From assembly GCF_036588685.1 (NCBI RefSeq), contig NC_086378.1:57598001-57662000 (forward strand): 64,000 nt of DNA. Direction: 5' to 3'. Position 1 is the stretch's first letter. Every line of letters begins with the position of its first letter. This document shows, piece after piece, positions 8,499 to 61,063 of the stretch. The stretch comes from Mytilus trossulus (lineage: Eukaryota). The notes beneath the pieces are model-generated. The model did no database searches. It saw only the letters and a program-made list of their open reading frames with translations, and was not told where the DNA came from. The position numbers and the translations under genes were made by a program.

Positions 8499-8714
8499 CC
8501 CTATAGCGGGTTATTTTCGCGGGATGTAAATTTTCGCTTATTTTCGCGGATAGAAGAAAATCGCCAAAATAAATTCAGCCAAATTAACGGTGTACATGCA
8601 AAGGTATTAATAAAAGTTTTCATCCGCCAAAATAATAACCGCTAAAATATTTCGTATACCTTGTTCAATGAAAATCGCGAAATTTTACACCCGCGAAAAT
8701 AACCCGCAATACGG
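8499..8714. mobile_element. Palindromic MITE with TA TSD (Tc1/mariner-like)
   Basis: TA|ccctatagcgggttattttcgcgggatgtaaatttt...aaattttacacccgcgaaaataacccgcaatacgg|TA. Confidence 0.8.
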
Positions 8715-8865
8715 TATTAGATATTTGCTGAATTAGAATCATTATATAATGCTAGATTAGATGAGAAAGTGTTCATTCTGGTAAACTTAAACTACTTCAT
8801 GTATTGTGATAAATTATTAATATTCTATACTTCATTAAATATACGAGAAAGTTATACCTACAGAA

Positions 8866-9045
8866 TAAACCCATCATAGACACCAGGATTGAATTCTGTA
8901 TTCACGCCCGACGCGCGTTTCGTCAAAAAAAAGATTCACGAGTGGCGCTCGGATCCAAAAAGGTTAAAACGGCCAAATGAAGTACATAGTTGAAGAGCAT
9001 TGAGTACCAAAATTCTTGAAAGTGTTGTTAAATACAGCTTAAGTA
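8866..9045 (-). repeat. Degenerate copy of the hammerhead repeat family
   Basis: GAAAC gcgc GTC retained; CTGATGA mutated. Confidence 0.65.
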
Positions 9046-9486
9046 CTTTGTTAATGTGGATTTTCGTTCAGGCTAGAAAACCATCTCCAGTTGATTATGT
9101 ATATTAAGTTACTTATTTTTTTTTACATCCCATTTTAACCTAAACTGTTTATTGACACAGATATTTAGGTCTATACATACAAATACAATCATTAAATAAA
9201 AGACTAAGCTGTGACTTTACTTCCTTATATTTAAGTTCTTAGGTTTAACACGATTAAGGTTATCAACTACAGCTAAATATAAGACATGTTAATGGGATTT
9301 TAATGTAGGTTCAGTTTATATCCTTGTAACAGGTTTGGTTTTCACAATATAAACGGTAATAATAATTAAGCACTGACGACATTATGCAAGTCCGAAAAAT
9401 GTTATCCTATCAGGAAGTCTTCTGTCGTTATAAAAATATGATAAAAATTACAAATTAAAAGAACACAATGTCTTTGACCTTCCATA

Positions 9487-54231: not shown

Positions 54232-54844
54232 CAGTGGAGATCACTTCTAACCTCCTCATTAGAACTGTCAGGAGAACTGTCATGGAACTGTTATAACCTG
54301 TCCTAGAACAGTTCTACCTAGAACAGTTCTACCCTAGAACTGTTCTAAGTAGAACTGTCAGAATCAGTTCTAGGTAGAACTGACTAAATCAGTTCTAGGA
54401 AGAACTGTCAGGATCAGTTCTAGGGTAGAACTGTCTAATTCAGTTCTAGGTAGAACTGTTCAAATCAGTTCTAACGGCGTAGAACTGTCAGCAGAACTGA
54501 CTAAATCAGTCAGGACTGTAGAACAGTTCTAAATGACGTCACTGCAGTAAGGGCACTTTATAATTTAGAAGAAATAAATCACTCCCAATTACTTTGCCAT
54601 ATAATAGCAGATTTTCTATATTTCTGTCTGATCAAACGTTACATGTACAAGTATCGAAGTGAATAGGAGGTTATCCAACTCATCGGAGAAATATTTTTTA
54701 TAAGATTGCATAGGAAACATCATTGTTTACGTTTCTTCGTTCCCCGTTTTTAACAGTCTCTTCATAGATTATATAACTCTGCATTTAATTCATGGAACTT
54801 TAATCGTAATTTACCTTGTATGCCTTGGATTTACATTCATTTAA

Positions 54845-55583
54845 GGTTTATATACCCTTCTGTAGCCATTTTTGTACGAATTTTTCAAACCTCAATTGTA
54901 TCAAAACTACAGATATATTGAATAATAGAGATAGGCCATTTAGTACATATTCCAAGGGGAAACTTGATGCAAAGCATTATTTTTTACTGTTTCATTGCAT
55001 TTGATAGAAAAAGAGGACTTTGTGGCAAATAAATCAAGATTTTTATAGAAAATCCACAGCCTTTAAAACAGAGATTTTTGTTATTAAATTTGAAACACAA
55101 ATTACTCACTTGATTTTCTATGATGTGCTAGTGTTTATTTTTTACAAAAAGTTCTAAGCAACCTGTAAATTCCAAAACACCTCGTGCTGAGTCACTAAAG
55201 TCGAGCGCACCCTAAAAGGTGTACTTGATTTTGGCCATATTTATATTTGTTTTAACCAATAACCACATTTATAAACTTGTTTTAAGGAAATCAATGATAG
55301 CACTGCATGCAATAATCCTATATCTATCAGTCATCAAATTGCCAAATATGAGAGTACAAGGATAAAGGCTGTGGATTTTCTATAAAAATCTTGATTTATT
55401 TGCCACAAAGTCCTCTTTTTCTATTAAATGCAATGGAAAAGAAAAAATTAATGCTTTGCATCAAGTTTCCCCTTGGAATATGTTCAAAATGGCCTATCTT
55501 TATTATTCATTATATCTGTAGTTTTGATACAATTGAAGTTTGCAAAGATTGTACAAAAATGGCTACAGAAGGGTACATAAACC
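54845..55583. mobile_element. Kolobok-like MITE, TTAA TSD, ~220-bp TIRs
   Basis: TTAA|ggtttatatacccttctgtagcc...ggctacagaagggtacataaacc|TTAA; 54845-55066 is inverted at 55362-55583. Confidence 0.85.
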
Positions 55584-55678
55584 TTAAGATTCTGTTTTGA
55601 CAAATGTTCATACGAAAATTGTACAGTGGATGAATTATGGGATATTGATATTGTTGTGTTATAACGTAAAAAAACTAT

Positions 55679-56294
55679 TGTAGCGATTATAGTTTGACTG
55701 TATAAATTATTATTATGTAAGATGTCTTTATTTTAAATACGTTTGGGTTAAATAACATTTCTACAGGGCAATGCCTAGTATTTTTTATTTATTTGAACGG
55801 TTTCTATATTATTTAAATTCACCGCCCGGTATCTTAAGAACCGCCCGGTACCCCATCTTTGGAACCGTCGGGGTACCGTCCGGTAACCCCATCTTTAAAA
55901 CTGTCAGGGTACCGCCCGGTAGCCAATCTTTAGAACCGTTGAGGTACCGCCCGGTATCTATAGAACCGCCCGGTACCCCATCTTTGGAACCGTCGGGGTA
56001 CCGCCTGTAAATATGTATATAAGGGGATGCGAGAGAGAATATAGAGAGTGCGAGATTTGAGATTGTTAGTTAGAAGTGTTGAGAGTAATATTGTTTTAGT
56101 GAATTAGGATTATTGTTCAACTGTTTTATTCTGTCAAACTGATATATATTCAACAGATTACATACTTATTTGATTTGAAACTTTGTGTTGTGGTTTGTTT
56201 TCTTTGTGCCATTTGAATATGGATTTTACGTAATTTACGCTACCAAAATAACACATCGACAAACACGAATCCATACAAAAACGACAACGCTACA
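55679..56294 (+). repeat. Gypsy 5' LTR (616 bp)
   Basis: Direct repeat of 59328-59944; TATATAA at 56016-56022. Confidence 0.95.
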
Positions 56295-56296
56295 AA

Positions 56297-56314
56297 TGGT
56301 GGCAGCGGTGGGAT
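56297..56314 (+). other. Primer-binding site, tRNA-Leu
   Basis: TGGTGGCAGCGGTGGGAT is complementary to the tRNA-Leu(AAG/TAG) 3' end. Confidence 0.8.
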
Positions 56315-56427
56315 AGCCATACACGAAGTTTTAGATTCATAATGAGAATAATTGTTGGAATATCAGTGAGACTTAAACTATTTGGATACATGTTACAATT
56401 TTCAGTTCAGGTTATGTTTTATTATTA

Positions 56428-57780
56428 ATGGAGATGGATCGAAATAGAACTGACTATAATTCTTATCCAATGGATTTTACGAACATTGGAGAAGAGCAGA
56501 CTGTTTCTGGAGAACACAACTTTAGGAACAGAAGTCAGTATTTACCAGGATTATTTTCACCATCTCAAGAATTCCAAGGGGTGCCCGATTCCATTCCAAG
56601 GACACCGGGAGATACCAGAACCGCACACCGGACGGTCCCTGGAACCCCATTTTTGACGGTGCCGACAGCTAACAGGTGGGGTGGTTTCGACGGTAGCAGT
56701 AATTGGAAGGATGAATCTTTTATTTCGAGCACACCAATGTCTGATATGAACCAGAGACAACAAAATGCTAATACAGCCGAAATTGATCATAAATGGAAGA
56801 AATTTGTTCTAAGATGGATTTGGTTTATCTTAAGTTTGATACTTGTGATCGGATTCTTTTCCGTAACATTTCCATTTCATGACATTGTTTGTTGGCTGAA
56901 GCAAAATGTTATATTATTGGTGGTTACTCTACTGATAACATTTCTAGTTTCGGTAAAGTTATTCATAAATGAAACCACAAAACGTCTGGAACACTTTGAA
57001 AACCAAAATGAGTACAGTAGAAGACCAACAGATTCCGTGCGTAAGCAATTGAACTTTGACCAGAACATTCCACATAGTCGAGACAATGCAAGGAATGTAC
57101 CGATGAACTCATCATCATCTCTGCAAGTTAACCGATCCGAAGTTCAGGTGAAGCGGACATTTAGTGGCGGTAACGATGATGTGTTAGCAGACTTTCTACG
57201 TTACTTTAAAAACATTGCGACACTAAATGCGTGGAATAAAGAGAGGAAAAGATTAGTGTTCTTTACAACCTTGCGAGGACATGCAGAAACATTTGTGCAC
57301 GGATTGCCTTTAGATATCCAAATGAGATGGGAGAGTTTGATAGATAAGATGGAGTTACGATTTGGACATTCAAACATGAAAGAAAGCTACCTTGCAGAGG
57401 CAAAACTAAGGAGAAGGAAACCTGGGGAATCGTTTAAAGATTTGGGGCAATCTATTGAAGATTTGTACAGGCGTGCATACCCATCTCATCCAGAACTTGT
57501 CCAAGAAAATAGTATCAGATCGTTTCTTGACGCTTGTGGTGAGTCGGAGGGGTTCCGCATGTTTATAAGGCGAACTAAGCCTAGGACTCTCCAAGAAGCT
57601 GTTGCAAGTGCCATGCAAGAAGAATGTATTCGAATGAATGAAGGAAATGTGAACAAGGTTAACAAGAGAAATAATGTTTATACAGTGGAAAAAGAAAGGG
57701 ATGTTTATGAACCGAGTTCAAAGAAGAACAATTATTCCGAAAGTCCGATAAACAACCGAAGATTTCAAAATAAGATATAA
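56428..57780 (+). CDS. gag: Gag (450 aa) with two N-proximal hydrophobic helices; the in-frame CCHC knuckle lies just past the TAA (57781-57948)
   Basis: Capsid-like region FSGGNDDVLADFLRYF...LRGHAETF...RFG...RRKPGESFKDLGQSIEDL; hydrophobic aa ~126-150 and ~161-180; downstream RQCTNCGKRGHTREYC. Confidence 0.88.
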   Translation: MEMDRNRTDYNSYPMDFTNIGEEQTVSGEHNFRNRSQYLPGLFSPSQEFQGVPDSIPRTPGDTRTAHRTVPGTPFLTVPTANRWGGFDGSSNWKDESFISSTPMSDMNQRQQNANTAEIDHKWKKFVLRWIWFILSLILVIGFFSVTFPFHDIVCWLKQNVILLVVTLLITFLVSVKLFINETTKRLEHFENQNEYSRRPTDSVRKQLNFDQNIPHSRDNARNVPMNSSSSLQVNRSEVQVKRTFSGGNDDVLADFLRYFKNIATLNAWNKERKRLVFFTTLRGHAETFVHGLPLDIQMRWESLIDKMELRFGHSNMKESYLAEAKLRRRKPGESFKDLGQSIEDLYRRAYPSHPELVQENSIRSFLDACGESEGFRMFIRRTKPRTLQEAVASAMQEECIRMNEGNVNKVNKRNNVYTVEKERDVYEPSSKKNNYSESPINNRRFQNKI

Positions 57781-57920
57781 AGACAGTGTACCAATTGTGG
57801 AAAAAGAGGACACACAAGAGAGTACTGTTGGAGTAAGACACATTCAAACAATCAGAACATTTCAAATCAGACGGTACCAGAGGAAGACACCGCCCAGATT
57901 AGCGGTGTAACCTTTCAGCA

Positions 57921-57963
57921 GTTAAACAACAACCGGTCGGAGCAATAGGCCCTGCTCCGACCG
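57921..57963 (+). promoter_or_regulatory. Predicted -1 ribosomal frameshift signal
   Basis: G_TTA_AAC in the gag frame, 6-nt spacer, perfect 11-bp stem cggtcggagca/tgctccgaccg with an 8-nt loop; the -1 frame is open to 58160. Confidence 0.75.
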
Positions 57964-59070
57964 ACGGTACCTGGTGGCCTAGCAGAAGTTTAAAGGAGTG
58001 TTCCTTGGATAAACATAGGACGACACGTTCCACTCAAACTGAAAGGGGTGATATGGAGATTGACTTGGATCACTTATTAGACCAAGATTTAACTCCAGAG
58101 TATCACATAACACCTAAGCGGTTGAGTGGTGGTGCGTTTGTTTATCTACGAGGGAACACATAGACAATGAATTATTGTCAGATAATATTGGGCAAAACAA
58201 CGTAGCTATGTTAACGAAAATACCTGGAAAAGTTGGTATGATGGTGAATGGTCAAATAGAAGGATCATCAATTAGTTGGTAGATTGATACCGGTGCAAGA
58301 TGTACATTCATTACAGAAGAATGCTACAGAAATATTTTGTCTGATGGTAGACCTATGCTAGGACCATTAGATACCAGGTTCATCACAACTATTGGTGGTG
58401 ATTTAAAAGTGCTAGGAACTGCTGTTTTGACGTTATCATGTGATGAATTTTGTGTTCAATTTTCAATTATTGTTTCAGGAGTAATAAATCATTTTCTTGG
58501 TGAAAGTATTATCCAATCCATTCGATGTCAAAGGGACTGGGATTCCTTATTTTTAGAAATAAGAGGCAGAAATATTCCATTTCATGTCAAAATATGGACT
58601 ATCTTAATTCTTCTCAAGGTATGGTGCATGTAAGTTTGTTTAACCCAACCAGTAAAGATAGTATGTTGTTCAAATGAACACATATTGCTGTGTTTGTACC
58701 AGTTTTGAATATCGGCAATTCTGTTGAGGTAGAAGATGAAAATGAAGATGTTTGTGGTATTGTTGAGCATCGTAATTCGTCTGATAGTTTGTTTCCTCAA
58801 TATATGAAAAAGATGTACCAAAGCGGTATACAGAATCTTTCAATTTAAGAAGCCGATGAATTTAAAAGGGTATTGCTGCAAAATTGTTGTGTGTTTGCTG
58901 ACCCTGATGGAGAAACTGGACATATATTATTGGGAATGCAAGATATCATACCGGAGAAACAGATACCAATCAAGATACTGCAGGACCATTCTTTTGATAA
59001 ATCATTGGGACCGCTGAACATTTTTTTTATAAATAAAATATTGGAACCACCAGACAATTCTTCAAAATAA
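57927..59070 (+). pseudogene. Degenerate pol: aspartic protease and pre-RT linker only
   Basis: MMVNGQIEGSSISW*IDTGARCTFI (DTG at 58286); later EFKRVLLQNCCVFADPDGETGH...PIKI; frameshifts and stops. Confidence 0.75.
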
Positions 59071-59327
59071 AACATTGGAATCTCTTGGAAATTATTTTAA
59101 TGGAACATTGGGTACAGAGTTCGTCACAGCTAATGTTGATGATTTGAAAGTAAAGTTAGGAACTGCTGTTATAACTTTATTATGCATATTGAAGTGAATA
59201 TACAACATTGACTTGAGTTGAACTATATTGTTTTTTTTGGTGGATATGTATTTAATTCTACAGTGAGTAGACTACTTTTGTTCAATACGACATTGAAATA
59301 GGAATTGCAATTGCTAGTTGGGGGGAT

Positions 59328-59944
59328 TGTAGCGATTTGAGTTTGACTGTATAAATTATTATTATGTAAGATGTCTTTATTTTAAATACGTTTGGGTTAA
59401 ATAACATTTCTATAGGGCAATGCCAAGTATTTTTATTTATTTGAACGGTTTCTATATTATTTAAATTCACCGCCTGGTATCTTAAGAACCGCCCGGTACC
59501 CCATCTTTGGAACCGTCGGGGTACCGTCCGGTAACCCCATCTTTAAAACTGTCAGGGTACCGCCCGGTAGCCAATCTTTAGAACCGTTGAGGTACCGCCC
59601 GGTATCTATAGAACCGCCCGGTACCCCATCTTTGGAACCGTCGGGGTACCGCCTGTAAATATGTATATATAAGGGGATGCGAGAGAGAATATAGAGAGTG
59701 CGAGATTTGAGATTGTTAGTTAGAAGTGTTGAGAGTAATATTGTTTTAGTGAATTAGGATTATTGTTCAACTGTTTTATTCTGTCAAACTGATATATATT
59801 TAACAGATTACATACTTATTTGATTTGAAACTTTGTGTTGTGGTTTGTTTTCTTTGTGCCATTTGAATATGGATTTTACGTAATTTACGCTACCAAAATA
59901 ACACATCGACAAACACGAATCCATACAAAAACGACAACGCTACA
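59328..59944 (+). repeat. Gypsy 3' LTR (617 bp)
   Basis: Direct repeat of 55679-56294. Confidence 0.95.
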
Positions 59945-61063
59945 CTATATACATTTGCACCATCTCGTCAATTTAGCCAGACTTATCCATAACGATTATA
60001 AATGATATCTTGGAGTCTGAAACTCAGAAAAATATACTCATCTGAACATAAATGAAGCATTTGCCACTGGACGTTCGGCTACAAACAAAATCATGCATTT
60101 TTCTTTGCCTTTTCCCACTTGTCTTCAAATTATATTAACAGTATACTAGTCTATCCAAGAAGAGAACTTCCCATACATGTACTTTTTATTTTAAAATAAA
60201 GTATATGAATTAGTCATGTGAGTGTTGGATGATGCCGTAAAATAGTTTTGTTTAAAAAAAAAAACATCACAAACTAACTGACTTAAAAAGTCACTTGAGT
60301 GACGGTTCATTATTATGGATACAGAGAGAAAATAACGGCATGCTAAATTTTAAGATATGGTATAAATACACCGCTATTTGTCTGCCATTACTGGATATCA
60401 CACAGGTTCCCGTAAAAATTTGACATCATAAAACAAAATATCTGACGCCACAATGGAAAAATGATTGTTGTATGCTTCAAAAGTTCAAGAGGGAGGGTCA
60501 GCCAGGATTAGCAATATAGGTGTATTGTGTTCCAAAGTTGGAGGCAAATATTTGCCATTACCATAAATTAACGCACTTTTAAATTGACGTAAACAAAGGA
60601 GCAAACAGAATAAGTGACATGCTCAAACTATTTACAATAACGTATTTGGATGAATTTTAATGATAATTTGCTTATATGTCTTCTATGTATAAAATTTGAG
60701 CATCGTTTGTTTACGTTTCCTTGTTGTGATGATTTTCGGTATCAGAAGGGTGTATTTTGCCGTAAAATGTTTAAATTATAACCTCACCATTCTATGACAT
60801 CGGGTACTTCATTCATAAAAAAACATATGACGTGGGAGTACGATCGGAACAGCCGATGCAATATATTCATATTTTACCATGGGTGTGTACTCAAAGCGTT
60901 TGAAGGACGTCATGTTAAAATCTTTTTTGGCCAATGTGTTACAATATCATGAATATTGCTGTCATTTGAATTATACAATCCATCCTGATATGTAATTACA
61001 TGTATAAGTGATTTACTATGTGGCTATATATATATATTAAAATTTACATTATAAAGTGTAAAT

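Follow-up and report, generated by a model that had tools for sequence, protein, structure and literature searches.

The capsids of Ty3/Gypsy retrotransposons are commonly considered to form freely in the cytoplasm. It is an open question how retrotransposon ancestors came to attach capsids to membranes for the first time, a step that in retroviruses falls to the matrix domain. The mouse IAP, an env-less ERV derived from a betaretrovirus, has one short hydrophobic stretch at the N-terminus of its Gag, which directs assembly at the ER and budding into it. A survey of mollusc LTR elements (PMC6238403) classifies them by RT and RNase H, and the word 'transmembrane' is absent from its main text. 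As described in its available sections, the screen of 10.1101/2025.03.14.642691 covered arthropods and short single-span ORFs only. In the portions of text at hand, Tor Env (PMC4402516) is a partial precedent, and an annelid survey (PMC8220671) and a study of env-carrying Gypsy elements (PMC13524379) describe no two-helix Gag. Our own search covered the full-text literature outside subscription journals and repeat databases, and within that range it returned no description of a two-helix Gag architecture; the families may already be catalogued in Repbase, GyDB or Dfam.

Here we analysed a window of 64,000 nucleotides of Mytilus trossulus DNA (the whole stretch, numbered from its first letter), for which a preliminary description had proposed an LTR-retrotransposon Gag with a built-in transmembrane hairpin. 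We find the hairpin to be genuine, shared by the whole lineage and under selection. The element itself is of a known kind, and the hairpin would have an unusual effect on particle formation.

The element in the window

The Gag of interest is held by a 4.27-kb LTR retrotransposon (55679-59944), in which the Ty3/Gypsy hallmarks are present: two TG...CA LTRs, a target-site duplication and a primer-binding site. All features of this element lie on the plus strand. The 4-bp duplication (left copy 55675..55678, right copy 59945-59948) was read straight from the flanks. The 5' LTR (55679..56294) and the 3' LTR (59328..59944, with a short G run just 5' of it at 59320-59325) share about 98.7% identity, being 6 substitutions and 2 small indels apart. 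The primer-binding site (56297..56314) is near-identical across all 7 elements compared and is a putative tRNA-Leu complement. Several short tandem repeats that have palindromic cores were seen in the LTR (55820-56010, 59470-59660). Elsewhere in the window we observed a MITE-like element of 747 bp (54841-55587), which ends some 90 bp before the 5' LTR and whose inverted arms of 225 nt are 93% complementary, and a 40-bp tandem satellite extending from 45000 to at least 46870.

The gag frame (56428..57948) runs for 506 codons to its natural stop, a TAG at 57946-57948. The 450-aa protein of the preliminary description is correct as an ORF length, but it does not end naturally: a premature TAA at codon 451 (57778-57780), just 5' of the CCHC knuckle, cuts the knuckle off while the frame continues to 57948. 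Sister copies read through at this position. Downstream, a broken pol remnant (57903..58974) consists of the protease region and a spacer. Comparison with the full-length sister L034 revealed that about 3.2 kb containing RT, RNase H and integrase is deleted from the window copy and that its 3' region is missing as well. The window copy is a dead relic of the proposed membrane-anchored Gag design. In a database search, the named relatives nearest to its Gag were Mytilus proteins.

A predicted membrane hairpin upstream of the capsid

The protein begins with a polar tail (aa 1-120, 56428..56787), which is probably disordered, as had been supposed: AlphaFold2 pLDDT lies below 50 over most of aa 1-106. 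Two hydrophobic runs follow at exactly the places reported. The first, predicted membrane helix 1 (aa 126-150, 56803..56877), has conserved tryptophans at its N-terminal edge (W123, W130), and the second, predicted membrane helix 2 (aa 161-180, 56908..56967), ends in a conserved lysine; in sister copies this second helix is longer by two residues. Between them lies a 10-aa loop (56878..56907) after a conserved proline; it is probably a short amphipathic helix and would face the luminal or outer side. The basic flanks were also found as described, HKWKK at aa 121-125 and TKR at aa 184-186. A variable linker (56968..57144), about 60 aa in the window copy and 29-325 aa among 41 homologues, leads to the capsid. 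Although the tail and linker vary, short motifs of the Ser-Thr-Pro and Arg-x-Leu types recur in them (56428-56800 and 57040-57070; alignment A1), in hairpin-free families too; these motifs resemble those for CDK, Polo-box and cyclin docking.

Whether hydrophobic helices are predicted at all was a check that the preliminary description had called for, and both hydropathy and AlphaFold2 answer it positively. The best 19-residue Kyte-Doolittle means of the two runs are 2.38 and 2.77, on a hydropathy scale that here takes the place of a dedicated topology predictor. Two such windows occurred in 0 of 5000 shuffles of the protein, and one in 8 of 5000. With a 33-row alignment, AlphaFold2 placed helices at 106-147 and 150-195, interrupted at the loop proline, with pLDDT of 82-89 across aa 121-180; the linker was of low confidence, like the N-terminal tail, and the helical capsid domain was confident. 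We therefore predict that the hairpin crosses a membrane. Both termini had been proposed to be cytosolic, for which the predicted number of helices speaks; the charge bias agrees modestly, with K+R per residue of 0.16 before the hairpin, 0.11 in the loop and 0.23 after it. Among the 25 Pfam families listed, of 41 matched at E <= 0.1 by 33 aligned proteins, none recurs as a hairpin model. Because of this, and because some gene models skip the hairpin, the feature is easy to miss.

The loop bears on how deeply the hairpin would enter the bilayer. Monotopic hairpins of the reticulon, caveolin and lipid-droplet types are known, and the Gag hairpin might likewise insert without spanning, acting as a wedge that bends the ER or places assembly on lipid droplets. 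A central proline, loops that are hydrophobic or amphipathic and poor in charge in several subgroups, and the presence of only 2 glycosylation sequons among 41 loops would all suit such a wedge. However, each helix is long enough for a membrane span, at least one acidic residue is present in all 41 loops, and the loops of distant members reach 27 aa. We consider the wedge improbable.

The two-lobed capsid domain (aa 240-405, 57145..57642) was identified by AlphaFold2 and by fold match. The preliminary description was right that a capsid-like domain is present, but placed its start at about aa 245, whereas aa 240 is nearer the mark. The best fold match was the capsid of PNMA2 (E 3.1e-4), followed by Arc, MLV, dArc1 and Ty3. 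Against a viral structure library only capsids matched, with a fungal metavirus ORF1 as the best. The CCHC zinc knuckle (57787..57828) lies beyond the premature stop and is hence severed from Gag in the window copy. The Gag of the lineage combines a two-lobed capsid fold with a nucleic-acid-binding tail, as in Ty3/Gypsy. The Gag C-termini of L036, L039, L041, L042 and L065 carry an Arg/Gly-rich tail instead of a CCHC knuckle.

Conservation and selection across the lineage

A search of the mussel's own genome gave 110 matches. The window's family is mostly decayed, and five sister families with capsid identities of 53-57% have the same hairpin. The preliminary description had also proposed looking for the hairpin in sister and autonomous copies, and we found it both in young, intact gag-pol copies and across the clade: L036 and L037 combine LTRs that are 99-100% identical with unbroken gag and pol frames and the hairpin, L039 bears it in unbroken frames with an altered RT motif, and an oyster (Saccostrea) Gag-Pol model contains both helices. 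Homologues in which 110 aa or more precede the capsid were grouped by capsid score, and two or more hydrophobic windows were present in 67 of 75 at >=200 bits, 4 of 9 at 100-200 bits and 0 of 15 below 100 bits; the first homologue set came from a whole-protein query, which enriches for matches that bear the hairpin. Four close homologues have no helices: in two, the gene model passes over a segment that sister DNA does contain, a third starts where helix 2 ends, and the fourth is a downstream-started call with a cluster-mate that has a helix. Scans of viral and metagenome contigs yielded 0 and 1 loci, none useful, no longer fused proteins were found among 3428 candidates, and a whole-protein query of the ESM Atlas returned only generic Gag clusters, below 0.9.

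The capsid tree of 70 rows is divided by a branch of support 99, and all 42 two-helix rows lie together on one of its sides. The same side holds 3 rows with one helix and 2 rows without; of the latter, one has a longer cluster-mate with both helices and the other a longer cluster-mate with one. The opposite side holds 22 rows without a hydrophobic window and 1 with a single window. The rows were hand-picked, with fragments, near-duplicates, P0042, P0092 and P0093 left out, and the tree is midpoint-rooted. A midpoint-rooted RT tree of 18 hand-picked own-genome rows, which left out the near-copies L038, L040, L044, L050, L053, L054, L059, L060 and L063, separated 9 rows labelled as elements with hairpin Gag from 8 other Gypsy rows at 100/100. 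L061 is unlabelled in this tree; helix 1 was found in its frameshifted gag. Judged by these sequence comparisons, the hairpin marks a whole Ty3/Gypsy lineage that includes mussel and oyster elements, and the simplest reading would be a single origin in a deep lineage.

We then consider what is kept. The mean identity to the window Gag is 61% in the capsid, 27% in the hairpin with 1% gaps, 13% in the tail with 41% gaps, and 11% in the linker. The spacing of the helices stays within 30-46 aa, compared with 29-325 aa for the linker, in a set of 41 proteins that excludes P0194, where the anchor motif is absent. The loop, 11-27 aa long in this set, has conserved features in the largest subgroup, and its proline is present in 76% of the 41 proteins. 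Seven distant rows have both helices even though the hairpin profile scores them at 4 bits or less. As the distant members keep the helices without likeness in sequence, the property that is kept would be a physical one, hydrophobicity. A dN/dS-type check, another suggestion of the preliminary description, revealed constraint: over 58 hairpin codons that are gap-free in the five sister families, pN was 0.14-0.34 and far below pS, which at 0.56-0.98 is near saturation (10 pairs). The capsid pN of 0.12-0.18 indicates that constraint on the helices is weaker than on the capsid. In the closer pair L039/L030, the hairpin gave a dN of 0.06 and a dS of 0.24. These comparisons indicate that the hairpin is under purifying selection while the flanking tail and linker drift.

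The same results dispose of the idea that a T-rich stretch of one broken copy just happens to translate as hydrophobic. The window copy is indeed degenerate, which would suit chance or decay, but the shuffles, the conservation across the clade and the purifying selection all contradict it, and we regard it as refuted.

Splice signals and gene models

The hairpin is left out of two public gene models, which raises the question of isoforms; the preliminary description had itself named a downstream start or splicing as something that would remove the hydrophobic part from the protein. The hairpin form might be an accessory membrane protein like MLV glycoGag, with a spliced or internally started soluble Gag that builds cytosolic capsids; glycoGag itself would be the precedent, to judge from the available part of PMC12530543. 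In 5 of 5 sister families (rows L036, L039, L064, L041, L042 and L065, scored with donor weights), gag nt 51-60, upstream of the hairpin, match the consensus of a phase-0 splice donor, and the donor's codons are used by only 8 of 44 other Val-Arg pairs in the ORFs of these families (13 of 49 including the five). The gene model P0093 links this donor in frame to a site past helix 2. On the other hand, the gene models are predictions, and the junction in P0092 differs from that in P0093. No in-frame acceptor is conserved in position, the window's family keeps the hairpin without a strong donor, and the donor may instead serve the 3' zinc-finger ORF of the same families. A reading frame opened at the first ATG includes the hairpin, and no Met is conserved in the stretch from hairpin to capsid, where 12 of 41 proteins have none. 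We find two isoforms rather unlikely.

Pol, frameshifting and the absence of env

A likely -1 frameshift signal (57921..57963) consists of a heptamer at 57921-57927 and an 11-bp hairpin at 57934-57963, with pol in the -1 frame. The RNA fold at this site had a z of -1.82, and 8 of 200 shuffles folded equally well. The slippery heptamer and the inverted repeat are kept across families (L036, L039, L041, L042, L065), and the Gag stop of sister copies comes directly after the heptamer. With pol reached by a -1 shift at a slippery site, Gag-Pol would carry the membrane anchor too. The order of pol in the sister L037 is PR-RT-RNase H-IN, as in Ty3/Gypsy.

It had been stated that there is no env ORF. 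The window copy is uninformative on this point because it lacks the 3' region and much of pol, but five sister elements have no env-like ORF: among sense ORFs of at least 50 aa with a hydrophobic span, neither an env nor an sORF2-like gene was found in L034, L036, L037, L039 or L041. The sole non-Gag hydrophobic ORF in the five was an out-of-frame ORF of 93 aa within a broken pol. Other classifications were rejected. The lineage does not consist of env-carrying Gypsy elements (errantivirus-like or Tor), as the five elements have no third ORF for a membrane glycoprotein. Nor is it of the sORF2/FAST-bearing kind, since the helices lie inside the Gag frame and there is no separate short, single-span, myristoylated ORF. 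A domesticated Gag gene such as Gagr, PNMA or Arc does not fit a lineage that is multicopy, LTR-flanked and equipped with pol in sister copies.

Other ORFs accompany some of these elements. A protein with C2H2 zinc fingers and an acidic tail is encoded at the 3' end of pol (L037:6955-7980, plus strand; L041:2289-3113, minus strand), an assignment made from a Pfam match below the curated cut-off. This ORF is also present in L039, L042 and L065 and in the hairpin-free L043 and L047, and is absent from the window's family; in L037 and L039 the region is in frame with pol and has its own Met. The hairpin-free Gypsy element L058 has an ORF of 302 aa upstream of gag (8517-9422, minus strand) with no Pfam match at E <= 0.01, which by eye we take to look like an SGNH esterase.

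Proposed assembly at the membrane

We propose that Gag is likely a membrane-anchored capsid precursor, at somewhat better than an even chance, in which the hairpin replaces the retroviral matrix domain and directs insertion into the ER and assembly against the membrane. This proposal draws on the sequences and the structural model. Nascent Gag would be inserted co-translationally into the ER with both ends cytosolic. The capsid and the RNA-binding tail must face the cytosol to package RNA, and two spans joined by a short loop would leave both ends there. Gag and frameshifted Gag-Pol, together with their RNA, would be concentrated in two dimensions, and the capsid lattice would grow from flexible tethers. 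With all its subunits anchored, the shell could close only by wrapping membrane or by being severed from it; the particle would thus likely bud through an internal membrane or mature on it. Finally, the protease of the element might cut the disordered linker at a putative site and free the core. Tyr-Pro or Phe-Pro pairs were seen just 5' of the capsid start in L036-L042, P0035 and P0096-P0103, and presumably resemble retroviral matrix/capsid cleavage sites. We did not adopt aromatic-Pro pairs as general protease sites of the linker, given that they are present in some subgroups and missing from the window's family.

The same Gag anatomy would also fit release from the cell, an idea of the preliminary description, with Gag at the plasma membrane or endosomes budding in a vesicle that spreads to other cells, as from soma to germ line, or to other animals, and with the outer loop serving contact or fusion. 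The loop features kept within the largest subgroup (76% of 41 with the proline, 11-27 aa) would agree with this, as would the soma-to-germline transfer of env-less MDG1 in flies by way of a small membrane protein, reported in the accessible part of 10.1101/2025.03.14.642691. Nevertheless, the five elements encode no fusogen, the loop is short and varies among subgroups, and the hairpin profile misses distant members. We hold enveloped release to be unlikely, if still worth weighing. A bolder version, in which Gag fuses the roles of matrix and envelope and a two-span capsid protein wraps its own envelope and moves between cells or, via seawater, between animals, seems to us a degree more doubtful. 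If it were true, a self-enveloping Gag would join the capture of Env and separate sORF2 fusogens as a third way of becoming infectious. Membrane-bound assembly inside the cell, the reading that we favour, needs fewer assumptions than release and spread in vesicles to explain the data.

An active, diverse and env-less lineage that keeps a predicted integral-membrane solution in Gag offers a natural system for env-free enveloped assembly. If the particles do leave the cell, it would also provide a mechanism by which retroelements pass from cell to cell and from one aquatic animal to another.

Comparison with known systems

The mouse IAP is alike in being env-less and in having a hydrophobic segment in Gag. 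They differ in that IAP has one short N-terminal stretch, whereas the hairpin lineage is Ty3/Gypsy and has two internal helices 50-170 aa from the start.

MLV glycoGag (PMC12530543), as far as the available text describes it, resembles the mussel protein in that a segment integral to the membrane, predicted in the mussel Gag, precedes the capsid. GlycoGag has a single span, a capsid part outside the cytosol, an upstream CUG start and an accessory function. By contrast, hairpin Gag has two predicted spans downstream of the main ATG, and its capsid would stay cytosolic; by its predicted spans and main ATG we rejected a protein of the glycoGag type. Drosophila Gagr (PMC8956099, from the part at hand) is comparable as a Gag of gypsy origin that possesses a transmembrane domain, and the ER has been proposed as its location. 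It is a domesticated host gene that reportedly gained this domain after domestication, whereas the hairpin occurs in mobile, recently inserted elements.

The sORF2/FAST-like proteins of the MDG1 group (10.1101/2025.03.14.642691, in its accessible sections) share with our lineage the setting of an env-less Gypsy element and a membrane protein encoded near the start of gag. sORF2 is a separate, single-span ORF of 60-210 aa and is often myristoylated; hairpin Gag has two helices within its own chain and no N-terminal Gly. Two further Gags have links to membranes. That of yeast Ty1 (PMC3945221) has an SRP-mediated link to the ER, but according to the available text it crosses into the ER lumen and returns to the cytoplasm. 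That of zebrafish Bik-1 (PMC12067270) has a link to the plasma membrane but binds by a coiled coil, and the word 'transmembrane' does not occur in the portion of text available.

The nearest comparison is with the mollusc Ty3/Gypsy elements (Metaviridae) described in the available part of PMC6238403. The hairpin lineage agrees with them in the LTR-PBS-gag-pol layout, in the order PR-RT-RH-IN, in the capsid fold and in having gag and pol in separate frames, and it differs from them by two predicted membrane helices in Gag.
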